The notes under the pieces were generated by a model that saw nothing but the letters and a program-made list of their open reading frames with translations, did not search any database and was not told the DNA's origin. 64,000 nt of DNA from an uncultured Spirochaetota bacterium (GTDB lineage: Bacteria > Spirochaetota > Spirochaetia > SZUA-6 > Fen-1364). Positions 8,441 through 21,654 of the stretch are shown one piece after another. Each line of letters starts with the position of its first letter. Within the stretch, counting starts at the first letter, position 1. The translations under genes were made by a program, and so were the position numbers. Location of the stretch: positions 160,001-224,000 of the forward strand of contig CAVUXE010000035.1 of assembly GCA_963745235.1 (NCBI GenBank). The letters are read 5' to 3'.

Positions 8441-8809
8441 ATGACGGATACGGTCTGCCTTATCATCAGGAAAGCACCATACGGGAAAATCAACGCGGCC
8501 GAGGCAGTCAGGCACGTCAACGGCGCCCTGGCAAGCGGTCTTGAACCTTTGGTAATTCTCATGGGCGATGGGGTCTATCTTGCCAGGGATAATCAGCATG
8601 CGGCGAAAGCGGGCTGGACTTCACTTTCGGACGCCCTCAGCCAGGTTCCCACGTCGAAGGGCGGGGAAGGAGCACGCTTCTACGTGCATCAAGAGTCTCT
8701 CGCCGATCGCGGGATTGAGCCCGACGGCCCGATGAAGCAATTCAAGGTTGTTTCCAGCCAGGAAATGGCCGGTTTTGTTGCGAGTTGCCCGAGGATGCTT
8801 CTCTTCTAA
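8441..8809 (+). CDS. DsrF/TusC-like protein
   Basis: RKAPYG...EAVR...LMGDGVY...ESLADRGI. Confidence 0.82.
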   Translation: MTDTVCLIIRKAPYGKINAAEAVRHVNGALASGLEPLVILMGDGVYLARDNQHAAKAGWTSLSDALSQVPTSKGGEGARFYVHQESLADRGIEPDGPMKQFKVVSSQEMAGFVASCPRMLLF

Positions 8810-8822
8810 CAGGAGGTCCAAG

Positions 8823-9146
8823 GTGAAACCGATTCTCATGATTATCTCCAGCTCTCCTGACACGCCGGAAGCCCAGCAGGCGCTGGAATTGGCGCAAAGC
8901 TTGTTGGAGGCAGGAAACGAATTGGGTATCTTCTACCTTCAAGATGGCGTGTACCACGCCACGGGTCCGTGGGGCTCTCACGAGGTTCTCTCAAACGGGA
9001 CGGTGGTTCATTATTGCCTGCGGGAAGATCTGGAAATGAGAGGGTTCAAGGCGGATGATGTGGCTCATCCCGTCATGCTGTCGGACTATGACGATCTTGT
9101 GGACCTCATGATGGAAAGATCCGGGCAGACCCTCGGAGCTTTCTAA
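8823..9146 (+). CDS. DsrH/TusB-like protein
   Basis: YLQDGVY...LREDLEMRG...SDYDDLVDL; GTG after AGGAGG. Confidence 0.8.
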   Translation: MKPILMIISSSPDTPEAQQALELAQSLLEAGNELGIFYLQDGVYHATGPWGSHEVLSNGTVVHYCLREDLEMRGFKADDVAHPVMLSDYDDLVDLMMERSGQTLGAF

Positions 9147-9158
9147 GGGGCGTACGAG

Positions 9159-9319
9159 ATGACAGGCCAGGACGTAACAGGTTCGCGACCCGGTGCATCA
9201 ACGCAGGAGAGAGCTCGACGAGAAAGGCGCCATGCGAAACGCCCCTTTACAGCCGCTCGATCGAGGAGAAGCTTGCCAGCATCGCGGGCGTCGAAGCCGG
9301 CTCGGATACCATTGAATGA
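9159..9319 (+). pseudogene. Heavily deleted remnant of a Cys/Met-metabolism PLP enzyme (Met gamma-lyase / cystathionine gamma-synthase family)
   Basis: Frame from 9182 reads FATRCINAGE...TPLY...SIEEKLASIAGVEAG*; its TGA overlaps the next ATG. Confidence 0.55.
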
Positions 9320-9912
9320 AGCTTCGCCAAAGTGACATGCCTGAGGAAGCGTACTGGGAAACGCTTCTTGATGTGGACGGCATCCTGCAACGCCTTCGTA
9401 TCGGCAAAGAGCTGCAAGACGTTGTCGAGCTGGGCTGCGGCTATGGCACCTTCTCTCTCCCGGTCGCCGCATCAATCTCGGGTGCTCTTCGCGCATTCGA
9501 TATCGATGCGGCCATGGTAGGACGAACACGTCAACGCGCGGAGGAACGCGGGATACGTAATCTCCTCTGCGAGCAGCGCGACGTCTTCCACGACGGTTTT
9601 GGCGTTGACGCAGGTTCGCAGGATGCCTGTCTTCTTTTCAATATCCTTCACTGCGAACAGCCGGCCCGTATCCTGCAGGAAGCCGCCCGCGCCATCAGCG
9701 GGCAAGGGTCCGTGTTCGTCATCCACTGGCGCCACGACCCTGCAACGCCGCGGGGACCATCGCTTGACATCCGCCCTCGACCCGAAGATTGCATCCGATG
9801 GGCAGAAGCAGCGGGCCTTCAGCCGACCGAAAACGGTGCTGTCGACCTGCCGCCTTACCACTATGGACTTGTCCTGAAGAAGCTTACCGAGGTGTCAGGT
9901 CACACAGCATAG
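9316..9912 (+). CDS. Class I SAM-dependent methyltransferase
   Basis: VVELGCGYGTF motif I, LLFNILH, IHWRHD..TPRGP. Confidence 0.85.
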   Translation: MKLRQSDMPEEAYWETLLDVDGILQRLRIGKELQDVVELGCGYGTFSLPVAASISGALRAFDIDAAMVGRTRQRAEERGIRNLLCEQRDVFHDGFGVDAGSQDACLLFNILHCEQPARILQEAARAISGQGSVFVIHWRHDPATPRGPSLDIRPRPEDCIRWAEAAGLQPTENGAVDLPPYHYGLVLKKLTEVSGHTA

Positions 9913-9968
9913 AAGACCGCCTGTGACACAAAGCGTTGCACAGCGAGACCTGGATGTCGTCGCGCTGT

Positions 9969-11627
9969 TCACGTCCCGTTTGATCCCTTCAGCCTCCGAT
10001 AGCGGCGGATCAGCGCGTTGGTGGAGCTGTCGTGCGACAGGGCAGGGTCACTCCTGCTCTCGAGCTCGGGGACGATTTTCTTTGCCAGGACCTTGCCGAG
10101 CTCGACGCCCCACTGGTCGAAGGAGTCAATGCTCCAGATCGTCCCCTGCGTGAATACGCTGTGCTCGTACAGGGAAACCAGGAGCCCCAGTGTCTCCGGC
10201 GTCAACCGTTCGGCCAGGATAGTATTGGTGGGACGATTGCCCTCGAAGACCCGATGCGGCGCAAGAGTGCCGTCCGTTCCCTCGGCCTTGACTTCGTCTT
10301 CCGTCTTGCCGAATGCCAGCGCCTCTGTCTGCGCAAACAGATTTGCCATGAGGAGATCATGCTGGTTGCCCACCGGGTTCAAGGTCTTGCAGAAGCCGAT
10401 GAAATCGCACGGGATCAGCTTTGTCCCCTGATGGACGAGCTGATAGAAGGAGTGCTGGCCATTTGTGCCCGGTTCTCCCCAGTAAATGGGGGCCGTCTGA
10501 TAGCTGACGCCCCTGCCGTCAAGGGTGACATGCTTCCCGTTGCTCTCCATTGTCAGCTGCTGCAGGTACGCCGGGAATCGCTTGAGGTACTGGTCGTAGG
10601 GCAGCAGGGCGACGGTCTGGGCATCGAAGAAGTTGTTGTACCAGACCGTGAGCAGGCCCATGAGGACGGGAAGGTTCTTTTCGAATGGCGCCGCGCGGAA
10701 GTGGTCATCCATGGCACGAAAGCCGGAAAGCATCAACCGGAAGTTTTCCGGTCCGATTGCGATCATGGTCGACAGCCCGATGGCTGAGTCCATTGAGTAG
10801 CGCCCGCCCACCCAGTCCCAGAAGCCGAACATGTTTGCCGTGTCGATGCCGAACTTCGCCACCTCCTCCGCATTGGTGGAAACGGCGACAAAGTGCTTTC
10901 GCACGGCTTCCGCGCCGCCAAGCTTGCGCAGGCTCCACGCCCGGGCGGCATGCGCGTTGGTCAACGTTTCCAGGGTCGTGAAAGTCTTTGAGCAGATGAT
11001 GAACAGGGTCTCTTCAGGATCCAGGTCGCGCACTGTTTCAGAAAAGTCAGTGCCATCAACGTTGGAGACAAAGCGGAAGCTCATGTCCCGCCGGCTGTAG
11101 TGACGGAGGGCCTCGTAGGCCATCACGGGGCCAAGGTCCGACCCGCCTATCCCGATATTGACAACGTTGCGGATGCGCTTCCCCGTGTGTCCGCGCCACG
11201 CTCCGTCGCGCACCTGGTCGGCGAAGTCCGCCATCCCGTCAAGCACTGCCCGCACCTCGGGAACCACGTCCACGCCGTCCACCACAATCCGCTCGCCCTC
11301 CCGCGCCCGCAAGGCGGTGTGAAGGACGGCGCGCTTTTCCGTCACGTTGATCTTCTCTCCGCTGAACATCGCTTCCGTGCGCGCGCGAAGGCCGGACTCC
11401 TCCGCAAGTTGCAGCAGCAGCCGGATGGTCTCATCAGTCACCCGGTTCTTGGAGTAGTCGAGGTAGATACCGGCGGCTTCGACCGTGAAGCGCTCGCCTC
11501 GCCGGGGATCTTCCGCAAAGAGCTCGCGCAGGTGCAGCGTTCGCATCTTCCTGGAGTGCGCTTCCAGCGCCTTCCACGCCGGGCGTTCGGTGAGCGGCTG
11601 TATGGGTGCGGATGAGTTGCGGGTCAC
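9969..11627 (-). CDS. pgi: Glucose-6-phosphate isomerase
   Basis: [48 protein letters not shown]; GTG 11627 after GGAGG. Confidence 0.97.
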
Positions 11628-11816
11628 GGTCACCTCCTCCGGGCCTCCCACCAGGCCCGCTGTCCAGACACAATCTATTGCACAAAAGGTGCCTGCGTCA
11701 AAGCTCGTCAACTGATATTTCAGCCGCCGGCGCCAGCCGTCAGCCGCCCGCCTCCGGCGCTTGCCCGAGGATGTTGCAATTTATGATATTCGGCCCTACA
11801 GAGGAAAGGAGACGCA

Positions 11817-12299
11817 ATGTACAAGACGAAGAACGATCTGCCGGAGAAAGTTCGAGCCGAGATGGTGACGCTTCTGCAGCAGCGGCTCGCTGACTGTATT
11901 GACCTCGTGACACAGGCCAAGCAGGCCCACTGGAACGTCAAGGGACCGAGCTTCATCGCGCTGCATGAGTTGTTCGACGAGGTCTATGCCCACGCGGGTG
12001 ACTCCGCTGACCTGATCGCGGAGCGAATCGTCCAGCTTGGCGCTGTTGCCGAGGGCACCGCGCGTATCGCGGCAAAGCGGTCCGGGCTGGCAGAGTACCC
12101 TCTTGAGATTGCAAACGGCAAAGATCATGTCGAGGCGTTGTCTCGCGCCCTGGCCTACACGGCTGAGAGCATCCGCAGCTCGATCGACCGGGCGGACGAG
12201 ATGGGGGACAAAGGCACGGCCGACATTTTCACGGAGATTGTGAGGAGCCTCGACAAGGACCTGTGGTTTGTCGAGGCGCACCTCCAGGCCGAGCGATAG
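11817..12299 (+). CDS. dps: DNA starvation/stationary-phase protection protein
   Basis: KQAHWNVKGPSFIALHELFDE...DLIAERI...DKDLWF ferroxidase motifs. Confidence 0.95.
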   Translation: MYKTKNDLPEKVRAEMVTLLQQRLADCIDLVTQAKQAHWNVKGPSFIALHELFDEVYAHAGDSADLIAERIVQLGAVAEGTARIAAKRSGLAEYPLEIANGKDHVEALSRALAYTAESIRSSIDRADEMGDKGTADIFTEIVRSLDKDLWFVEAHLQAER

Positions 12300-12403
12300 C
12301 CCCCGGGCAGGCGCCGTGCGGGTTCCCCGAAAATCGCCAGGCCGCGGCAGGGAGTGCAGGCGCCGTGGCGCCTCCGGCGGACCGGGGCGCGCGCTCGCGG
12401 ATC

Positions 12404-13357
12404 TCATTTCTTTCGCCGGGACAGGACCGCGGCCAGGATGATGAGACCCTTGATGATCTGCTGGTAGTAGGATTGGACGTTGTACTGGTTGAGGAGGTTG
12501 TCGATGACTCCCAGGATGAGCACTCCCCAGAACGTCCCGATGGCCCCTCCTCCGCCCCCGCCCAGGATGCCGCCGCCGATGACCACAGCCGCGATGGCAT
12601 CCAGCTCAAAGCCCGCACCGAAGCTGGGCTGCGCAATTCCCAGCCGGGAGGAAAGGAGGACTCCTGCCATCGCCGCGAAGAACCCGCACAGGATGTAGGC
12701 AAGGAGCAGGTGTCCCTTGACGTTGATGCCGGCAAGCCGCACGGCTTCCTCGTTGCCGCCGATGGCAACGACGGCCCTGCCCGGAATTGTCCGGTTCAGG
12801 AAGACCCAGATGACGAAGAAGCAGATCACCATGATGACCGACGCGGTGGGCACGGGGCCAATGAATCCGCCGCCAAGAAGCGCTCGGAACGCAGGGTCCA
12901 CCGGTGTCTGCGGGGTTTCCGAGAAGACGTACGTCACGCCTCGAACCACACCCATGGTCGCAAGGGTGACGATGAAAGGCTGCAGCTTGAACCGCGCGAT
13001 AAAGAAGCCGTTTGCAGTGCCAACTGCTATCCCTGCCACGAGGGCCACCAGGATGGCCGCCGGCATGGGCATCTGTTTCTGGAGGCCCGTGGCCATGATC
13101 CCGCACAGCGCGACGGTGGAGCCCACCGACAGGTCGACGCCTCCGGTGAGGATCACCACCAGCATGCCGATGCTGATGAGGCCGTTGGTGACGATCTGGC
13201 GAGAGATGTTGATGAGGTTCCTGGAGGTGAAGAAGGTCTCAGAGACCAGCGAGCTGATGAGGATCAGCACGACGAAGATCCCGACAAAAGCGAAATCCGA
13301 CCAGCGGATCCTCGCCGTTTCCCGCATCCTGTCGACAAATGGAACCGCAGCCTTCAT
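12404..13357 (-). CDS. Sugar ABC transporter permease (RbsC-like, CUT2)
   Basis: ILTGGVDLSVGS, FIVTLAT, AIGGNEEAVRLAGI, FELDAIAAVVIGG. Confidence 0.93.
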   Translation of the reverse strand: MKAAVPFVDRMRETARIRWSDFAFVGIFVVLILISSLVSETFFTSRNLINISRQIVTNGLISIGMLVVILTGGVDLSVGSTVALCGIMATGLQKQMPMPAAILVALVAGIAVGTANGFFIARFKLQPFIVTLATMGVVRGVTYVFSETPQTPVDPAFRALLGGGFIGPVPTASVIMVICFFVIWVFLNRTIPGRAVVAIGGNEEAVRLAGINVKGHLLLAYILCGFFAAMAGVLLSSRLGIAQPSFGAGFELDAIAAVVIGGGILGGGGGGAIGTFWGVLILGVIDNLLNQYNVQSYYQQIIKGLIILAAVLSRRKK

Positions 13358-14868
13358 GTTTGTCCCCCGCTGTTGATCACGCCTGCCGCGCGCTGGAGCA
13401 GTATTTCCTCGTTCGCTTCTGCGCGGTCCAGGTTTCCTACGAGCCTGCCTTCCCGCATGACGAGAATCCGGTCACTCATTCCCAGGACCTCGGGCATCTC
13501 TGATGAGATGAGCAGCACGCCCACTCCTGTTTCGACCAGGCTGTTGATGAGGTGGTAGATTTCCACCTTCGCGCCGATGTCCACCCCGCGGGTGGGCTCG
13601 TCAAGGAGAAGCACCTTGGGCTGCGAAAGGAGCCACTTGGCAAGCACCACCTTCTGCTGGTTTCCTCCGCTCAACGTCCGCACGGATCTGCCGAGAGCCG
13701 CCGTCCGCACGGCCAGCGCATCCACCTTTTCCTGCACAAGGACCGTCTGCCGCGCGGTGTCCAGGAACATGCCGTGGCCCATGCGGGGAAGGGAGGCAAG
13801 GCTCACGTTGTCGCGGACCGAGCAGCTCATCACCAGGCCGTCCCGCTTGCGGTCCTCCGTCACCAGGGAGACCCCCGCGTTCACCGCGTCCCGGGGGGAC
13901 CGCAGCCGCACGGGCTTCCCCTGGACGCTGATGCGTCCCGAGGTTGCCGGCTCCGCGCCGAAGATGCTCCTCGCAACCGCTGTCCTCCCGCTTCCGACGA
14001 GCCCGAACATGCCAACCACCTCACCGCGGCGCACGGAGAAGGTGACTTTTTGAAACTCTCCCTCCCGGCCCAGGTCCTCGACGCAAAGCACCTCTTCTCC
14101 CGGGGGCACGGAGCGCCGGGGATAGATCTCCTCCACCGACCGTCCCACCATCATCCTGATCAGGTCATCCTGGCTCACGGATACGGTGGGCACCGTGCCC
14201 ACCACCTCGCCGTCACGAAGCACCGTGATGCGGTCAGCGATCTCGAAAACCTCTTCCAGGCGATGGGAGATGTACAGCACGAGCGTGCCCTCCGCCTTCA
14301 GGCGGCGGATGAGGGAGAAAAGAAGGGCCAGCTCGTCCTTGGAGAGCACCGCGGAGGGCTCGTCAAGGATGAGAATCCTCGGCTTCTCCGCCAGCGCCTT
14401 GGCGATCTCCACGACCTGCTGGTGGGATACGCTGAGCCGCGAGACCCGTGTGCGCGCGTCCAGCGCGGTGAACCCCAGGCCGCTGAGGATTGTGCGGGCC
14501 TGGGAGCGCGCCTGGCGCCAGTGGACCCAGAGGCCGCCGCTGTTCGGCAGCCTTCCCATGAGGATGTTCTCCGCGATGGTCAGGTGCGGCACGAGGCTGA
14601 ACTCCTGGTGGACGGCCCGAATGCCCAGCCTGTTCGCCTGGTGGGGAGTGCTCATTGTCACGGGCGCTCCGCCGATCACGATCCTCCCGGAATCCGGAGT
14701 GACTGCTCCCGAGAGGACATTCATCAGGGTCGACTTGCCCGCGCCGTTCTCTCCGACAAGGGCGTGGATCTCCCCGATGGATGCGGACATGCTCACGTCC
14801 CGGAGGGCCACGGTGCCTCCGAATCTTTTGTAGATGCTCTGCATGGACAAGAAGCAATCACTGCTCAT
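13354..14868 (-). CDS. Sugar ABC transporter ATP-binding protein (RbsA-like, two NBDs)
   Basis: GENGAGKST, ILDEP, GLVGSGRT, EDRKRDG, LSGGNQQKV, LDEPTRGVDIGAK. Confidence 0.95.
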   Translation of the reverse strand: MSSDCFLSMQSIYKRFGGTVALRDVSMSASIGEIHALVGENGAGKSTLMNVLSGAVTPDSGRIVIGGAPVTMSTPHQANRLGIRAVHQEFSLVPHLTIAENILMGRLPNSGGLWVHWRQARSQARTILSGLGFTALDARTRVSRLSVSHQQVVEIAKALAEKPRILILDEPSAVLSKDELALLFSLIRRLKAEGTLVLYISHRLEEVFEIADRITVLRDGEVVGTVPTVSVSQDDLIRMMVGRSVEEIYPRRSVPPGEEVLCVEDLGREGEFQKVTFSVRRGEVVGMFGLVGSGRTAVARSIFGAEPATSGRISVQGKPVRLRSPRDAVNAGVSLVTEDRKRDGLVMSCSVRDNVSLASLPRMGHGMFLDTARQTVLVQEKVDALAVRTAALGRSVRTLSGGNQQKVVLAKWLLSQPKVLLLDEPTRGVDIGAKVEIYHLINSLVETGVGVLLISSEMPEVLGMSDRILVMREGRLVGNLDRAEANEEILLQRAAGVINSGGQT

Positions 14869-16313
14869 AGGGGTGGCGCGGGGAATGCATTATGGACAAG
14901 GATCACCTTCTGCTCGGTCATCTCGTCAAGCGTATCATGAAGCCCCTCGCGGCCGTACCCGCTCATCTTGGTCCCGCCGAAGGGAAGGTTCTCCGAGCGG
15001 AGGGCCGAGGACCAGTTCACGATGACCCCTCCCACCTCGAGCCGGTCCGCAATCGTGAGGGCACGGGAGATATCACTCGTGAAGACGGCCGCCTGAAGAC
15101 CGAATGAGCTGTCATTTGCCATGGTCACTGCCTCAGCCTCGGTGGAGAAGGGGACCACGGGAGCGACGGGACCGAACGTCTCTTCCCTGAAGAGCGGAAC
15201 GGAGCTGGGCACGTCCGCGAGCACCGTTGGCGTCACGAAGGATCCGCGTCTCTGCCCGCCGAAGAGCAGCCGAGCGCCGGCTTTCACCGCCTCCACGGTG
15301 GCGGCCTCCACTTTCCGGGCGGCTTCCTCGCTGATCAGGGGGCCTACGTCCGTCTCCTCCCGCAGCTGGTCTCCCACGCAAAGCGTCCTTGCCCTGGCGG
15401 AAAGCCGCTCGCAGAAATCTCCGTAGACCCGTCGATCCACGAAGACCCTCTTCACTGCGCAGCAGATCTGGCCGTTGCCCCGGGCCAGGCGGCCCAGGAC
15501 CACGGCCTCCGCCGCTTTCTCCAGGTCCGCGTCCGCGCAGACGATGGTGGCGTCATTCCCTCCGAGCTCGAGGTGGACCTTCTTCAGCGTTTCCGCGCCG
15601 AGCTGTGCCAGACGGATCCCCACCGCCGTGCTCCCCGTGACCGAGACCATGCGCACCACCGGGCTGCGGGCCAGCAGCTCTCCGACCTGCTCCCCCGGCC
15701 CCGTTACCATCTGGTGAGCTCCGCGGGGAAGACCTGCGTCTTCCAGGATGCCGGCGATTTTCAGGAGAGTGAGGGGGCAGGCGCTGGGAGGTTTCGCAAT
15801 CACGGCGTTGCCGGCGGCAAGGGCGGGAGCGGCCTTGTGCGCATACAGCTCCACCGGATAGTTGAAAGGAACGATGGCAGCGATGACGCCCAGCGGCTGG
15901 CGAACGGTCATGGCGAAATGCCTTTCATTGCCGGGCACCGCGTCCATGGGAATCATGCGGCCGAAGATGCGCCTGCCTTCCTCCGCAAACCCCCGGAAGA
16001 TCCGAGCCGTGACGTCCACCTCGTCCCTGGTCTGGCGGATCGGCTTGCCGTTCTCCCGGGCCAGGAGCGTTGCAAGCTCCTCCCTGCGGTCATGGATGAC
16101 ATCCGCGGCCGCGGCCAGGATGGCGGACCGCTTGTGCGCGGGCAGAGCCCGCATGCGCCCGCTGCCCTCCACCGCCGCCTGCAGGGCGCGCTGCACGTCC
16201 GCCGCCGCGGCAACGGGGACGGTGTCGATGGCTTCCGCGGTCCCGGGGTTGCTGACTGTTTGAGTCTTTCCATCTCCAGCGGCCACCCACTGGCCGTCGA
16301 TGAGCATTTTCAT
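14865..16313 (-). CDS. Aldehyde dehydrogenase
   Basis: PFNYP, TGSTAVG, LELGGND, GQICC (catalytic Cys), EETFGPV, PFGG. Confidence 0.93.
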   Translation of the reverse strand: MKMLIDGQWVAAGDGKTQTVSNPGTAEAIDTVPVAAAADVQRALQAAVEGSGRMRALPAHKRSAILAAAADVIHDRREELATLLARENGKPIRQTRDEVDVTARIFRGFAEEGRRIFGRMIPMDAVPGNERHFAMTVRQPLGVIAAIVPFNYPVELYAHKAAPALAAGNAVIAKPPSACPLTLLKIAGILEDAGLPRGAHQMVTGPGEQVGELLARSPVVRMVSVTGSTAVGIRLAQLGAETLKKVHLELGGNDATIVCADADLEKAAEAVVLGRLARGNGQICCAVKRVFVDRRVYGDFCERLSARARTLCVGDQLREETDVGPLISEEAARKVEAATVEAVKAGARLLFGGQRRGSFVTPTVLADVPSSVPLFREETFGPVAPVVPFSTEAEAVTMANDSSFGLQAAVFTSDISRALTIADRLEVGGVIVNWSSALRSENLPFGGTKMSGYGREGLHDTLDEMTEQKVILVHNAFPAPPL

Positions 16314-16367: not shown

Positions 16368-17321
16368 CTAAAACACGCTCTCTGGAATGTAGAACCTGGC
16401 CACGTTGTCGATCGTGATCAGAGGCGACGGCAGAACGGTGTCCTTCTCCGACTGCGCGCCCGCCAGGAGAGCCATGAGCCGGGTGAATCCGGCGCGGCCT
16501 ATCTGGTCAGAGCTGTTCAGCCCCGTCGCGGCGTAGTTCGTCTTTTTCATGATCTGTTCCAGTGCAGCCTTCTCGCCGTCCACCCCGCAGATGAAGATCT
16601 GGCTGGTCCGGCCGGCATCACCTATGGCCTTCTGGGCGCCCAGCGCCATGGAGTCATTCTCCGCGAATACGGCGTCAATCTGGTTGTACTTTGCAAGCAA
16701 GTCCTCCATGAGCTTGAACCCGCCGTCTGAGCTCCAGCCGCCGAAGTTGGGCGCCATGACGACCTCTATCTTGCTCTTCTTCACTTCGGAGAGCATGCCG
16801 TTGGTGCGGTCAAGGCCGATGGAGTTGTCGGCAGGCCCCCCGCGCAGCACCACAAGGCGGCCCTTGCCGCCCAGCCGCTTCACGATGTACTCCCCGTCCT
16901 GCTTTCCGATGGCAAGGTTGTCCGGGCCCACCCAGCTCGTGTAGTCCCCGCCTTTGAGCTTGCGGTCGACCAGGACCACGGGCACTCCCGCCTTCTTGAT
17001 TGCGTCCAGAGCCTCTGGAGCCGCCTCGAGCCAGGCGGCGCTTATGATGAGCCCGCTCACGTTCTGCGCAAGCACGTCTTCGACATCCGAGGTCAGCTTC
17101 TGCGCGTCCCCCTTCGCATCAGTGGTGACGAGCTTGATGTTGCCGAAGTGCTCACACTCCTGTTTCACCGCCTGCGACATGCCGATGAAATACGGGCTCG
17201 TGAGCGCCAGGTTCACCATGCCGATCTTGATCTGGCCTTTCCCCTGCGCTGCCGCGGAAGTGGCGGAAAATGCCAGGGCAACCGCGCAAAGAATGAACAC
17301 CAGGAACCGGAGCTTTTTCAT
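16368..17321 (-). CDS. Sugar ABC transporter substrate-binding protein (RbsB-like)
   Basis: Signal peptide MKKLRFLVFILCAVALAFSATSAAA, PVVLVDR, VFAENDSMALGA, GVDG; RBS GGGAGGAG. Confidence 0.93.
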   Translation of the reverse strand: MKKLRFLVFILCAVALAFSATSAAAQGKGQIKIGMVNLALTSPYFIGMSQAVKQECEHFGNIKLVTTDAKGDAQKLTSDVEDVLAQNVSGLIISAAWLEAAPEALDAIKKAGVPVVLVDRKLKGGDYTSWVGPDNLAIGKQDGEYIVKRLGGKGRLVVLRGGPADNSIGLDRTNGMLSEVKKSKIEVVMAPNFGGWSSDGGFKLMEDLLAKYNQIDAVFAENDSMALGAQKAIGDAGRTSQIFICGVDGEKAALEQIMKKTNYAATGLNSSDQIGRAGFTRLMALLAGAQSEKDTVLPSPLITIDNVARFYIPESVF

Positions 17322-17385: not shown

Positions 17386-17402
17386 TGCATGCTCCGTGCC
17401 AA
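17386..17402 (-). promoter_or_regulatory. sigma54 (-24/-12) promoter of the ABC operon
   Basis: TTGGCACGGAGCATGCA = TGGCAC-N5-ATGC, with exact GG-N10-GC spacing. Confidence 0.8.
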
Positions 17403-17551
17403 GGCGGAGGGTCGACAGAAAGCCGGTCGGTGTGTTTTGCAACTTATTGTATCACAGCAGGTTATGCGACGGAATGGAAGAAGCGTTGACAGCTGCATCC
17501 AGCCGCGGATATAGTGAATGTGTAGAATTTACCCAATTCGCGGGAGTCGGC

Positions 17552-18893
17552 TTGAGTAATAATCACGAGCAGCGCGCCGCATCCAATCTGCTCATTGTGG
17601 ACGACAAGGTGAAGCTTTGCCGGAGCCTTGCCCGCAATTTCGAGCACGTGGGGTTTACCACATCCATTGCCACAACGGGGCAGGAAGCCGTTGCGCGGTT
17701 CTCGGCCGCCCGGATGGACGCGGTGCTTCTGGACATCATGCTCGGGGAGGAAAGCGGCATCGACATCCTCACGAAGCTTCTCGCCGTGGACAAGAATGTC
17801 CCCGTGATCATGATCACCGGCTACGCCTCGGTGGACAGCGCGGTGCAATCTCTGAAGCTCGGCGCGTTCGACTACGTGAAGAAGCCGCTGGACTTCGAGG
17901 AGCTCCTGAAGACCGTGGAGAAAGCGTGCGAGTTCTCCCGCCTGCGGGAGGAGAACAGCAAGCTGCGGTCCCGGCTCAAGGAGCTGTCAGCAACCATCGT
18001 TACCCGGGATGCCCGCATGGGGGCACTGATCCGCAAGGTGGAAAAGCTTGCCGCCACCGACCTTCCGCTGCTGATCTGTGGAGAGAGCGGGACGGGGAAA
18101 GAGGTCCTGGCTGACTACGCGCATTCGGCGTCCGCGCGAAGCGCCGCGGCCATGGTGAAGATCAACTGCGTCGCCTTCCCCGAGACGCTTCTCGACAACG
18201 AGCTCTTCGGCCATGAGAAGGGCGCGTACACGGGGGCGGATTCCGTTTTCAAGGGCCTGTTCGAGAAAGCAGACGGGAGCACCCTCTTTCTTGATGAGAT
18301 CGGCGACATGCCGCTCGGCATCCAGGCCAAAATCCTCAGGACGCTGCAGAACAACGAGATCAGGCGGCTGGGAGGAAATGACACCATTCGAGTGAACGTG
18401 CGCTTCATTGCCGCGACGAACAAGGACCTCGCGGAGCTGATCAGGAAGGGCCAGTTCCGGGAGGACCTTTTCTACCGGCTGAACGCCGCGGTTCTTTCCA
18501 TCCCCTCTCTCAGGGAACGCCGCGACGACATCCCGCTCCTCGTGGAGCATTTCCTTCGCGGCTATCCCGTCGCGCAAGGATGTGACCGCCGAGGTGATGG
18601 AAAAGTTCCTCCCGTACGACTGGCCCGGAAACGTTCGGGAGCTGAAGAACGTGGTCAACTACGCGGCGGCAATGTCCTCGGGAGACAGCATCGGGATCGA
18701 GGACCTTCCGGTGCATTTCCTGGAAGGCACGCGCGCCGCGGCCGGCGGGAATATCCGCGAGGACATGGAGAGGGCCCTCATCCTCAAGGTCCTGCAGAGC
18801 ACCAAGTACAACCGTTCGAAGACCGCCGAGCTCCTGATCATGAGCCGCAAGACCCTCTACACCAAGATGGCGAAGTATGGTCTCAACTCCTGA
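17552..18893 (+). CDS. sigma54-dependent response regulator (NtrC family; REC-AAA+-Fis HTH), frameshifted at ~18570
   Basis: LLIVDD, VLLDIML, GESGTGKE, ELFGHEKGAYTGA, LFLDEIGD, FREDLFYRL; WPGNVREL and the HTH lie in another frame (18582-18893). Confidence 0.9.
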
Positions 18894-20727
18894 GGCGGTT
18901 TCGACGGAGACCGATCTCCTTCGCCTTGCCCACGTGTGCCTGGACTACGGGCAGGTGGAGGCGCTCAAGGATGTCAACCTTGTGCTTCGCGGTTCGACCG
19001 TCCACGCCATCGTAGGTGAGCACGGGGCGGGGAAGTCTTCCCTCGGGATGGTGATCAGCGGCAACGTGCGGCCGCGCCGGGGACACGTGGAGCTGGACAA
19101 CCGGCGCTTCGACTCCCTCACCACCCGCACGGCCCACCGGCTGGGCATCGAGATGGTCTACCAGCAGGTGCAGCTCAACACCTTCTTCACGGTGGCGGAG
19201 AATATCTTCTTCCTGAACAAGTCACTGGCGCGGCGCGGCCTGCTCAGCCAGCGGCGCCTCGCACGCGAGGCCCAGACATTCCTTGACCAGCAAGGCTTCA
19301 ACCTGGACCCGACCGAGGTCGTCAAGAACCTCAACCTCCCCGACCGGGTCCTCATCTCCATCCTTGCGGCTCTGCAGAAACGGCCCCGGCTCCTCATCCT
19401 GGACGAAGCGCTGGAAAAGCTCTCTTCTTCGGATTTGCCGAAAATCATGCGCGCGCTGAACCAGATGAAATCCGAGGGGATGGCAATCCTCTTCATCACG
19501 CACCGCATCGACGACGTGTATGATCTTGCCGACCGGGTGAGCATCGTGAAAAACGGGGAGATCCTGGTGACCGATGATGTCGGACACATCGACAAGATGA
19601 ATCTCCTGCGCCTGACATACACCCAGGTCTACTCCCTGGAAAACGCCGGCAACCGAAAGCGGGAGTTCAACCAGTTCCTCAAGTACAACGAGGCGGTCCT
19701 CCTCAATCTCCCGGTGAACCTCATCGTGGTCGACGGGGAAGAGCGGGTGAAGATCGTGAACGAGCGCTGCAAGGGGTATTTTCACCTTGGGGACGCTCCT
19801 ATCGCCAACCAGCCCCTGGAGAGGCTTCTCGGTGCGGAGAACCAGGAGACCCTCTCGCTCATCCGCGAGGCCTTCCGGTCCGAGGAGGGGAACGCCTTCT
19901 ACCATGTTCCGCTTGCCATCGCGGGGGACGACACCGTGAACAACGTGCGGACGCTTCCGATCTACGACGAGGAGCGGCTCATCGGGAACATCATCATCAT
20001 CGAGGACATCACGGAGTTCGACAAGCTGCAGAAACAGGTCATCCTCTCGGAGAAGCTCGCCTCCGTGGGGCTCCTTGCCGCGGGGGTGGCGCACGAGATC
20101 AACAACCCCCTGGAGATCGTCTACAACTACCTCAAGTACATCAAGTACTCCTTCGATGACGCGAAGCTCCATGAGACGGTGGACGAGCTGCACGAGGAGA
20201 TCACCTACATCGCGGGGATCGTTCGCGACCTCCTGTCCCTCTCCGGCACCGCACAGGTCCAGAGGGAAGGGATCGACATCAACGAGATGATCAGGAGCAC
20301 CGTGGGCCTGCTTCGCCACAGCGCGCACGAGAAGCTCATCACCATGGCATTCGGCTCGCAGGAAAGGGAGCTGACCCTTACGGTCAACCGGAACGAGATC
20401 AAGCAGGTGATCCTCAACCTCGTGAAGAACAGCTTCGAGGCCATGCCGGGCGGCGGGCAGATCAGCATCGAAACCTCGCGGGCGCTGGACGAACGGGGAC
20501 GACCGTGCGCTTCGATCGTGTTCAGCGACACGGGCCCCGGGATACCGGACGCGAACCTCACCAACGTCTTCATCCCTTTCTACTCCACCAGGAAGGGAAA
20601 GGGGGATCACGTCGGGCTTGGTCTTTCCATCTGTTACGGGATCATCAAGCGCCATGACGGGAGCATGAGCGTGAGGAACCTGGAGCGCGCCGGGTGCCGC
20701 TTCACCATACGGCTTCCCCTGCCATGA
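18877..20727 (+). CDS. Hybrid sensor: ABC ATPase domain + PAS + histidine kinase (HisKA-HATPase_c)
   Basis: GEHGAGKSS, MVYQQ, LILDE, FITH; PAS segment ending IEDITE; AHEINNPL, NLVKNS, DTGPGI, PFYST, GLGLSI; one uninterrupted ORF, no hydrophobic segments. Confidence 0.92.
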   Translation: MVSTPEAVSTETDLLRLAHVCLDYGQVEALKDVNLVLRGSTVHAIVGEHGAGKSSLGMVISGNVRPRRGHVELDNRRFDSLTTRTAHRLGIEMVYQQVQLNTFFTVAENIFFLNKSLARRGLLSQRRLAREAQTFLDQQGFNLDPTEVVKNLNLPDRVLISILAALQKRPRLLILDEALEKLSSSDLPKIMRALNQMKSEGMAILFITHRIDDVYDLADRVSIVKNGEILVTDDVGHIDKMNLLRLTYTQVYSLENAGNRKREFNQFLKYNEAVLLNLPVNLIVVDGEERVKIVNERCKGYFHLGDAPIANQPLERLLGAENQETLSLIREAFRSEEGNAFYHVPLAIAGDDTVNNVRTLPIYDEERLIGNIIIIEDITEFDKLQKQVILSEKLASVGLLAAGVAHEINNPLEIVYNYLKYIKYSFDDAKLHETVDELHEEITYIAGIVRDLLSLSGTAQVQREGIDINEMIRSTVGLLRHSAHEKLITMAFGSQERELTLTVNRNEIKQVILNLVKNSFEAMPGGGQISIETSRALDERGRPCASIVFSDTGPGIPDANLTNVFIPFYSTRKGKGDHVGLGLSICYGIIKRHDGSMSVRNLERAGCRFTIRLPLP

Positions 20728-20781: not shown

Positions 20782-21654
20782 CTAGCGGAACAGCTGCAGG
20801 ACCGTCTGCGGTTTCGTGTTTGCCTGCGCCAGCATGGCGGTTGAGGACTGCACAAGGATGCGGTCCTTCACGAACTCCACCATCTGCGCCGCCATGTCGG
20901 TGTCCCTGATCAGGCTCTCGGCCGCCTGGAGGTTCTCCGCGCCGACAGCCAGCCCCTTCATGGCGTACTCCAGCCTGTTCTGGTAGGCTCCCAGGTCCGC
21001 CCTCTGCTTGTTGACGAGCCTCAGGGCGTGGTCCAGCACCCCGATGGCCGCGTTGGCGTGATCCGGGGAGGACAGGGAGATGAAGGTGGCGTTGGCCGGT
21101 AGGCCGTTGGCTCCCTGGATCCCCAGCCCCTGGGCGGTCATGGTGCCGATGTACACGCGGGTTCTCTGGTCCATGTTGGCCCCGATCTGCAGCCACATGC
21201 TGCCGGTGACCGCGTTCTCTCCCGTGGAGCGGGCGAAACGGCCGGTGAGCATGTTCATGCCGTTGAACTGGGCGTGGGAGGCGATGCGGTTGACCTCTGC
21301 CACGAGGGCGGAAACCTCCACCTGGATCTGCATACGGTCTTCGTCGGAGTAGATGCCGTTGGAGGCCTGCACCGACAGCTCGCGCAGCCTCTGCATGATG
21401 TCCTGGCTCTCCTGGAGGTAGCCTTCCGCGGTCTGGATGAAGGAGATGCCGTTCTGAGCGTTGTTTTCCGCCTGGCGGAGGCCGCGGATCTGGGAACGCA
21501 TCTTCTCCGAGACTGCCAGCCCGGATGCGTCGTCCCCCGCGCGGTTGATGCGCATGCCGGACGACAACTTCTCCATGTCCTTGTCCCCCTGGATGTTATT
21601 GAAGAACAACTGGCGGTCGGCGAAGAGGGCGCTCATGTTGTGATTGATGACCAT
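20782..21654 (-). CDS. flaB: Flagellin, spirochaete periplasmic flagellar core protein (FlaB class)
   Basis: MVINHNMSA...[31 protein letters not shown]...QIGANMDQR...[12 protein letters not shown]; short 290-aa form. Confidence 0.95.

Follow-up and report, generated by a model that had tools for sequence, protein, structure and literature searches.

How cytoplasmic regulators learn what binding-protein-dependent ATP-binding cassette (ABC) importers see is a recurring question, known from the Pho, Bce and Mal systems, and in the known cases the link runs via separate proteins and is hard to dissect. Here the question is raised by a histidine kinase gene in a 64,000-nucleotide stretch of DNA from an uncultured Spirochaetota bacterium (GenBank assembly GCA_963745235.1, contig CAVUXE010000035.1, positions 160,001 to 224,000; this whole stretch is referred to as the window). 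The kinase starts with an ABC nucleotide-binding domain (NBD) resembling those of CUT2 sugar importers, and it is encoded beside the genes of such an importer. We report that the fusion between the NBD and the kinase is real and no assembly artefact, that the protein is a bona fide HisKA-class kinase, and that its gene comes second in an operon, after that of a sigma-54 NtrC-type regulator. Comparison of related loci makes it highly probable that this regulator-kinase pair controls the neighbouring transporter operon via sigma-54.

According to the list of open reading frames (ORFs) and its translation, the kinase is encoded by a single ORF without interruption (positions 18877-20727, plus strand; 616 aa), and Pfam and the translation agree on the order ABC, PAS, HisKA and HATPase that an earlier, sequence-only reading of the window had given for it. 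Specifically, the Pfam models match as ABC_tran (PF00005; residues 30-179, E 3.4e-21, 76.7 bits vs a cut-off of 25), PAS_4 (residues 277-381, E 1.1e-6, above the curated cut-off), HisKA (residues 398-456, E 2.4e-8, 34.3 bits vs a cut-off of 26.9) and HATPase_c (residues 505-615, E 9.6e-22, 78 bits vs a cut-off of 26.4). The H-box of class I (HisKA) kinases is present together with the motifs that we take to be the N, G1, F and G2 boxes, and residues H406, N518, D551, G553, G555, G580 and G582 are invariant across 121 kinase-family sequences. Residues 268-615 match positions 267-608 of AtoS (NCBIfam NF008468), and the scores (208.7 bits vs a cut-off of 646 for AtoS and 136.7 vs 479 for ZraS) place the kinase outside the AtoS, ZraS and NtrB equivalogs.

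No membrane segment was detected in the kinase, in line with the sequence-only reading: the top 19-residue Kyte-Doolittle mean is 1.39 and falls inside the DHp helix, and the AlphaFold2 (AF2) model has no membrane-type helix. This model, for which the alignment consisted of the 121 family members, has a mean predicted local distance difference test score (pLDDT) of 90.2 and a predicted template modelling score of 0.68. It shows the NBD (residues 13-251), a hinge (approximately 250-260, with pLDDT of 54-77 near these residues) and an N-cap helix (257-276), followed by the PAS core (281-377), a single long helix that runs on into the DHp (379-425 and 429-456) and, last, the catalytic domain (464-614). 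Within the family the mean pairwise identity is 0.10 for the hinge, 0.38 for the N-cap helix, 0.22 for the PAS, 0.30 for the NBD and 0.41 for the DHp, and the PAS core is the least conserved folded domain. Using Foldseek, the C-terminal 360 residues were matched to PAS-kinase chimeras (8a52 and 4gcz) and the N-terminal 400 to ATPases with C-terminal regulatory domains (MetN 6cvl_D, 2it1_A and 9j4r_B). In the matches to 6cvl_D and 2it1_A the kinase PAS falls at the place of the MetN/MalK-type C-terminal regulatory domains, over approximately 390-400 columns and with a high root-mean-square deviation (rmsd) of 10-13 Å. Foldseek returned no solved chain covering the NBD and kinase parts together, and a sequence search of the PDB with the kinase gave transporter NBDs only.

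Domain architecture, synteny with CUT2 genes and the NBD-PAS junction were points that the sequence-only reading had put up for checking, and homologues, related loci and independent contigs favour it on them. Among the best 120 homologues listed (of 4163 proteins at E ≤ 0.001, among 8000 scored candidates), 118 have PF00005, PF00512 and PF02518 in one chain of approximately 595-641 aa, at 49-98% identity. The two exceptions, P0018 and P0037, are shorter pieces, and since P0037 begins at kinase residue 149, within the NBD, it is a piece of a fused gene. For cluster representatives at 50% identity, 120 of the 150 best matches are colinear with the kinase over residues ~10-615 (26-52% identity), while 27 of the remaining 30 are shorter pieces. 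Moreover, proteins below 338 aa gave 40 matches at E ≤ 1e-20, and the best of these (P0288) spans residues 29 to 303 over the NBD-PAS junction and then loses frame, which also makes it a fused-gene piece. Near-identical DNA is present in soil- and peat-labelled metagenome runs from four studies, and here a contig of run X2 (record 15; 19469-19922) runs with 0 gaps from the NBD end through the hinge and over the PAS core, and a contig of run X4 (record 29; 19401-19684) bridges the NBD end and the hinge with no gap. Run X1, possibly the sample of origin, was left out of the independent support; none of its contigs run across 19587-19620 and several bins are thinly covered, and nothing was inferred from such gaps. 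An RNA run, X20, contained a fraction of 0.05 of the sampled sequence words.

That a mis-assembly or a frameshift merged half an ABC ATPase gene with a kinase gene has, in our view, a negligible probability. The assembly does contain indels, e.g. the regulator frame break at 18570-18572 described below, and at paralogue loci in the same genome ATPase and permease genes are in pieces and a fourth kinase copy is broken at approximately residue 218. Nevertheless, such an artefact is contradicted by the recurrence of the single-protein architecture in homologues from many sources, by the colinear cluster representatives, by the gap-free contigs from other runs and by the short forms P0288 and P0037. 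A natural split into two genes was rejected on similar grounds, as the copy on contig C75 breaks inside the NBD, and the two short forms are remains of fused genes.

All NBD motifs quoted in the sequence-only reading were located, i.e., GEHGAGKSS (residues 47-55), VYQQ (94-97), LNLPDR (152-157), LILDE (173-177), EALEKL (177-182) and FITH (206-209), and its view of intact Walker A, Walker B, Q-loop and H-loop motifs next to an eroded signature and D-loop holds. The motifs of an ABC_tran domain are present as the Walker A sequence, the Walker B sequence LLILDE (172-177), Q96 and H209, while what we take to be the consensus LSGGQ signature and SALD-type D-loop are replaced by LNLPDR and, in the region of the altered D-loop (178-184), by EALEKLS. 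Among the 121 family members, Walker A residues G47, G52 and K53 are kept in 118, 117 and 117, Walker B residues D176 and E177 in 117 and 109, Q96 in 92 and H209 in 86. None of the 121 has an LSGGQ-like signature or a SALD-like D-loop: signature position 153 is S in 27, N in 25 and P in 20 members and position 155 is S in 52, A in 15 and P in 12, with G outside the six commonest residues at both. By the general rules for ABC ATPases, this motif pattern predicts that ATP binding is selected and that hydrolysis would be slow in a homodimeric sandwich.

With respect to ancestry, the likeness to the N-terminal half of RbsA/MglA seen in the sequence-only reading was confirmed and extended. For residues 14-257 the match is confined to the first half of the two-domain CUT2 ATPases (NCBIfam YtfR, AraG, AlsA, XylG, LsrA, MglA and RbsA), for YtfR positions 1-243 of 492 with 160.7 bits vs a cut-off of 850, and with scores below the cut-offs and one NBD rather than the tandem two in approximately 500 aa the kinase falls outside the CUT2 ATPase equivalogs. 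Compared to the neighbouring ATPase, the identity is 35% over 225 aa to its first NBD (NBD1) and 21% to its second (NBD2). The neighbour's NBD2 has a canonical LSGGNQQ together with a degenerate Walker A (GSGRT), and in its NBD1 the signature is already relaxed (LSVSHQ) and the D-loop ends in LS, suggesting that the kinase domain inherited NBD1 character. In a quick tree of 23 kinase NBDs with 22 NBD1s and 22 NBD2s of the neighbouring ATPases, the kinase domains all fall on one side of a branch (SH-aLRT 99), away from both ATPase sets, and the sister pairs among the kinases parallel those among the ATPases (quick search with SH-aLRT support only and the midpoint root for drawing; L121 and L122, where the NBD match began after residue 30, were excluded). 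The common clade and the mirrored sister pairs would be explained by a single ancient fusion that was then inherited together with the transporter, rather than by repeated capture. This speaks for a kinase NBD derived from the first half of a CUT2 ATPase and joined once to a PAS-HisKA-HATPase core.

The regulator gene ahead of the kinase has an uncertain start (ATG 17474 or TTG 17552), and its stop codon (TGA, 18891-18893) overlaps the kinase ATG region by 17 nt; its NCBIfam score lies below the equivalog cut-off (362.1 vs 714 bits). As assembled, the REC and AAA+ domains are in one frame to approximately 18565 and the Fis-type helix-turn-helix (HTH) tail is in another. One contig from each of four runs (four studies) has one base fewer at 18570/18572 and regulators at related loci have a single frame, so the break is an indel of the assembly or of the strain, probably of the assembly, and no feature of the system.

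The regulator-kinase pair is divergent from the CUT2 sugar ABC operon, and a candidate sigma-54 promoter precedes the binding-protein gene (Table 1). This lone match proves nothing, since two-mismatch sigma-54 matches in the whole window are no commoner than chance (51 observed vs 64 expected). Across related loci, a GG-N10-GC element with at least 8/10 consensus positions is present in 20 of the 22 regulator-transporter intergenic regions, and one with at least 9/10 in 17. The corresponding means for shuffles of these regions are 2.59 and 0.37, and same-length stretches shifted 2.5 kb give 5/43 and 0/43. Moreover, all 20 elements are oriented to the transporter genes. The genome also has rpoN (Sigma54_DBD, 191.1 bits), and the parts of a sigma-54 two-component regulon, i.e., a regulator with REC, AAA+ and HTH domains, a predicted -24/-12 promoter and rpoN, are thereby in place. 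We infer that the kinase passes its phosphoryl group to the adjacent regulator, which would activate the operon via sigma-54. When inverted and direct repeats were sought as regulator sites, only one two-copy 10-nt direct repeat was found, GC(T/C)GCATCCA at 17492-17501 and 17576-17585 (84 nt start to start). It lies 90-190 nt upstream of the candidate promoter and is a candidate regulator site, or chance.

In 25 of 26 related loci the pair lies next to genes of a CUT2 transporter, which bears out the synteny expected from the sequence-only reading: 9/9 in a first set (six other genomes and three paralogue loci of the source genome) and 16/17 in a second (13 genomes of the phylum). One locus, L122, is cut off before the regulator. 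A locus search with the HisKA peptide gave, among the 80 loci listed, six full-length relatives (L001-L005 and L027), and the other 74, with ordinary kinases, were set aside. The source genome has four kinase copies, each beside its own CUT2 transporter, the three others being at L085 (G000:C9), L086 (G000:C28) and L087 (G000:C75). One copy per CUT2 transporter argues for a transporter-specific signal rather than general energy, and four copies by different CUT2 transporters, together with the absence of an extracytoplasmic part, point to an input that is specific for the transporter or the sugar. At L085 and L086 the ATPase and permease genes are in pieces, and the C75 kinase has its frame change at approximately residue 218 in the NBD; the gene pieces at these loci suggest an indel-prone assembly (85.7% complete, 5.9% contamination).

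Some related loci are arranged differently. On one contig of a Spirochaetota metagenome-assembled genome (MAG), two pairs of regulator and NBD-kinase genes stand back to back (L027; 4998-8128 on the minus and 8707-11833 on the plus strand), each flanked by its own CUT2 ATPase and permease. At L116 (5748-7614) and L122 (2653-8844) the adjoining transporter has a single-NBD ATPase (approximately 250 aa) and not a fused two-NBD one, and at L122 two such single-NBD transporter sets are in tandem.

As judged from source names, members of the family come from Spirochaetia/Spirochaetota MAGs, candidate division KSB3 (Vecturithrix, Moduliflexus) and Desulfomarina (Desulfobacterota). In a sample of the phylum, at least 14 of 401 genomes (the source included) have a match at E ≤ 1e-55, with three candidates scored per genome. 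Two complete genomes of one contig each, G030 and G094, are among the carriers of the system. Those named members that were looked up are labelled only "ATP-binding cassette domain-containing protein", and other source names are "histidine kinase", "ATP-binding protein", "signal transduction histidine kinase/ABC-type ... ATPase" and JGI names of the domain type. The sequence-only reading knew of no described kinase of this kind, and our literature search, which had supplements and subscription journals outside its reach, likewise found no description of an ABC_tran-PAS-HisKA-HATPase_c kinase. The NBD-kinase family thus appears to be large and unstudied.

What, then, could the NBD contribute? 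Our explanation as a whole is a dedicated sigma-54 two-component switch for the CUT2 operon in which the NBD supplies the input by docking, and we consider the case for it to be nearly balanced, if slightly on the doubtful side. The soluble kinase and the adjacent sigma-54 regulator would form the switch for the divergent operon, i.e., binding protein, aldehyde dehydrogenase, ATPase and permease. The two NBDs of a kinase dimer would dock onto the permease dimer at its coupling loops, where they would replace or exchange with the transporter's ATPase, and a sugar-loaded binding protein outside would favour their ATP-dependent closure. Because the LSGGQ signature is degenerate, the closed state would be long-lived and hydrolysis slow. 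Movement would be relayed via the conserved N-cap helix and the PAS to the DHp bundle, upon which the kinase would autophosphorylate, the regulator would be phosphorylated and the operon induced. In this scheme, ATP binding and the direction of signalling are what we infer. Docking, in short a motor replaced by a kinase, is the single most likely mechanism among those considered, although we hold it tentatively.

The sequence-only reading had also placed the NBD on the cytoplasmic face of the neighbouring permease, and for this part of it the complex model speaks, with conservation of the contacts leaning slightly against it. For two permease copies and kinase NBD residues 1-256 (alignments of n = 25 for the permease and n = 121 for the NBD) the ipSAE was 0.67 (runs 0.67, 0.64 and 0.68), and for the controls the best of 3 was 0.00. 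In calibration 58 of 80 solved complexes and 2 of 110 mismatched pairs reached the mark, which is only a rough guide for a three-chain job with our own alignments. At least 93% of the contacts were in common between runs, and the pLDDT of the partners was at least 80. The modelled interface joins permease residues 185-211 and 268-269 with NBD residue 63 and residues 82-123 (Q-loop and helical subdomain), and the permease contact loop is the conserved T..GR..YA.GGNE..RLSGI. A Q-loop and helical subdomain seated on a coupling loop is the textbook geometry of an NBD and its coupling helix. Hydrophobic character is kept at NBD positions 100, 101, 104, 112, 122 and 123. However, the pass may mirror only family likeness, since ABC importer complexes have already been solved.

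Several observations weigh against docking, or against the wider explanation built on it. Within the kinase family conservation is lower at the contact positions than elsewhere in the NBD (0.269 vs 0.443), and so it is in a diversity-matched subset of 22 sequences (0.377 vs 0.519, ratio 0.73); in true NBD1s the drop is smaller (0.540 vs 0.622, ratio 0.87). Of 5000 random position sets, every one equalled or exceeded the contact set in the kinase family, and a fraction of 0.95 did so in the NBD1s. This comparison had no filter for solvent exposure, and surface positions are poorly conserved in both sets; we read it as leaning slightly against docking. Moreover, nearly every locus has the transporter's own complete two-domain ATPase, so the kinase NBD is dispensable for transport and would have to compete or exchange with that ATPase. 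The hinge (residues 252-262) is variable and modelled with low confidence, which does not suggest a rigid mechanical link, and the variability of the PAS core would suit a ligand-specific PAS sensor equally well. At one locus (L114) there is no transporter gene within approximately 9 kb, and the related loci are partly from kin genomes, so that the locus counts overstate their independence. With these observations and the model taken together, docking of the kinase NBD on the permease coupling loops is possible, though somewhat less likely than not.

The strongest competitor, unlikely as we find it, makes the PAS domain the real sensor: in the cytoplasm it would bind the sugar brought in by the importer, or a catabolite, and the NBD would be an ATP-dependent dimerisation or gating module with no permease contact. 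A PAS less conserved than both NBD and DHp is as expected for paralogue-specific ligands, and the transporters' possession of their own ATPase and the lack of special conservation in the modelled groove contacts fit as well; the conservation of Walker A and B shows that ATP binding matters, with no need for a membrane partner. Yet this explanation offers no reason why a transporter-derived NBD was kept for so long ahead of the PAS, always by a CUT2 transporter, in a kinase that already binds ATP through HATPase_c. To our knowledge, cytoplasmic PAS domains for free sugars are not a common type, and the complex model does pass its mark with 0.67 vs 0.00, even if likeness to solved structures may explain the pass.

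Quite improbable is a role in transporter control or energy sensing, where the NBD would brake or pair with the true ATPase, or read ATP/ADP, and the kinase would report occupancy or energy instead of external sugar. An NBD of NBD1 character with canonical Walker A and B motifs and a degenerate signature is without what NBD2 (LSGGNQQ) supplies in a true CUT2 ATPase, and ATP/ADP sensing had been put forward in the sequence-only reading as the alternative to docking. Nonetheless, the true ATPase is one polypeptide whose halves are already paired, and a general energy sensor need not multiply, whereas here four paralogues are tied to different CUT2 transporters. A generic ATP/ADP sensor acting alone was rejected for this one-to-one pairing.

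Docking as the input could also be taken one step further, with the importer chassis as the receptor, i.e., binding protein, permease dimer and, in the place of the ATPase, a kinase dimer. We regard this as plausible, yet rather doubtful, and give the same weight to its sequel, in which external sugar would lead to NBD closure and histidine phosphorylation without transport, as in a bacterial "transceptor". If this were true, the paralogues would represent one receptor per sugar transporter.

The features of the locus are collected in Table 1.

Table 1. Features of the kinase locus and its surroundings (positions in the window).
Feature	Position	Strand	Basis or remark
Glucose-6-phosphate isomerase (PGI)	9969-11711	-	ORF as listed, TTG start
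ORF, 203 aa, Arg/Pro-rich	11796-12407	-	No Pfam or NCBIfam match
CUT2 permease (BPD_transp_2, RbsC/AraH-like), coupling loop at residues ~185-211	12404-13357	-	Pfam, NCBIfam
CUT2 ABC ATPase, two NBDs	13354-14868	-	Pfam (two ABC_tran stretches); NCBIfam, AraG/XylG/RbsA-like
Aldehyde dehydrogenase in the transporter operon	14865-16313	-	Pfam Aldedh, E 1.8e-157
Periplasmic sugar-binding protein (Peripla_BP_4, RbsB-like)	16368-17321	-	Pfam, NCBIfam, sequence context
Putative sigma-54 type -24/-12 promoter, TGGCACGGAGCATGC	17387-17401	-	Pattern search; ~65 nt upstream of the binding-protein start
Sigma-54-dependent NtrC/AtoC-type response regulator (REC, AAA+, Fis-type HTH)	17552-18893	+	Pfam Response_reg and Sigma54_activat; NCBIfam AtoC/NtrC
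One surplus base splitting the regulator frame	18570-18572	+	Contigs of 4 runs
NBD-PAS-HisKA-HATPase_c histidine kinase, soluble	18877-20727	+	ORF, Pfam, NCBIfam, AF2, homologues
ABC nucleotide-binding domain, CUT2 NBD1-like (residues 14-251)	18916-19629	+	Alignment, family motif counts, tree
Variable hinge (residues 252-262), then conserved N-cap helix (263-277, EF.Q.LKYNEA.L)	19630-19707	+	pLDDT, pairwise identity
PAS domain (residues 277-381)	19705-20019	+	Pfam PAS_4; pairwise identity
Kinase core: HisKA/DHp with H406 (HEINNPL); HATPase_c with N514/N518, DTGPGI (551-556), GLGLS (580-584)	20068-20721	+	Pfam, invariant columns
Flagellin gene (Flagellin_N and Flagellin_C)	20782-21654	-	Convergent with the kinase, 55 nt past the kinase stop

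The binding-protein ORF as listed is overlong, the true start being ATG 17321, preceded by GGGAGGAG and leading into a signal peptide. Every NCBIfam match on the transporter proteins is below its cut-off and names no substrate. The aldehyde dehydrogenase gene, which separates the binding-protein gene from that of the ATPase, may be a clue to the sugar, e.g. a deoxy-sugar; its best NCBIfam match is lactaldehyde dehydrogenase (487.8 bits, below the cut-off of 650). The 203-aa ORF overlaps the permease stop and is possibly spurious in DNA of 62% G+C, leaving approximately 0.7 kb between permease and PGI unexplained, and the PGI ORF has approximately 84 residues ahead of its Pfam domain, its true start probably being further downstream. 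No PhoU-like gene was seen by Pfam among the proteins of the locus.

Should a link between importer and regulator exist here, it would be built into one soluble and, as the mean pLDDT of the AF2 model indicates, well-folding polypeptide, and would thus be directly testable. The family comprises at least 120 full-length colinear clusters at 50% identity, and some genomes have several copies. Were its function defined, hundreds of genes would be re-annotated, an ABC ATPase domain would join the input domains of kinases and sigma-54 would be marked as the induction route for sugar transporters in these lineages. The operon with a sigma-54 regulator, the sigma-54 promoter, the transporter's own ATPase and the large multi-copy family are all additions to the sequence-only reading.

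Among known systems, the "flux-sensing" module BceS-BceAB of Bacillus subtilis comes close in logic: a kinase without a sensor of its own depends for its signal on a cognate ABC transporter whose genes are close by, and the transporter operon is regulated. BceS sits in the membrane with two transmembrane helices and touches the permease BceB, with BceA as a separate protein and a regulator of the OmpR type, whereas the kinase here is soluble, carries an ABC ATPase-type domain in its own chain, and goes with a binding-protein-dependent importer and a sigma-54 regulator. BceS-like intramembrane-sensing kinases are defined by two N-terminal transmembrane helices and a minimal extracellular loop, and a top Kyte-Doolittle mean of 1.39 puts the present kinase outside this definition. 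PhoR-PhoU-PstB of E. coli, the phosphate signalling system, is similar in that a kinase with a PAS domain probably senses what state the ATPase of an ABC importer is in, and in the present kinase, too, NBD and PAS would lie side by side. However, PstB is the working ATPase, PhoU mediates and PhoR is membrane-anchored, while here the NBD is a dedicated additional one with a covalent link to the PAS.

ABC ATPases are tied to gene regulation also in the MalK/MetN-type proteins (6cvl_D, MetN; 2it1_A), where the NBD is followed by a C-terminal dimer-forming regulatory domain; an example is the sequestration of MalT by MalK. There, the C-terminal domain serves to regulate the ATPase (trans-inhibition) or to bind a regulator, whereas here a complete kinase follows, to which the NBD would pass information, and the high rmsd of the superpositions means that the relative placement of the domains differs from that in the kinase model. 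The CUT2 ATPases (RbsA, AraG, XylG, MglA and YtfR) share with kinase residues 14-257 the character of their first NBD, including the relaxed signature and the D-loop ending in LS, but have two NBDs where the kinase has one, and the kinase NBDs form a clade of their own. From the signalling side, AtoS/AtoC and NtrB/NtrC have the same PAS-HisKA-HATPase core and an AtoC/NtrC-type regulator, but the kinase scores below their equivalog cut-offs and has a different input domain, and AtoS is a membrane protein. The xylose sensor XylFII-LytS-YesN of Firmicutes is likewise a two-component system devoted to induction of a CUT2 sugar ABC transporter, although it employs a membrane kinase and a binding-protein-like periplasmic sensor, and the kinase here has neither a membrane nor an extracytoplasmic part. 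The kinase would work like those of transporter-coupled two-component systems while departing, for want of membrane helices, from their structural definition. In the wide sense, such "co-sensing" systems are those in which kinase and transporter touch and the kinase output follows the transporter's state, and here it is the complex model that bears on this, with a pass that may stem from likeness to solved importers. Transporter-linked two-component sensing is already known as a kind, and what is new here is an ABC-ATPase input domain that is covalently attached.

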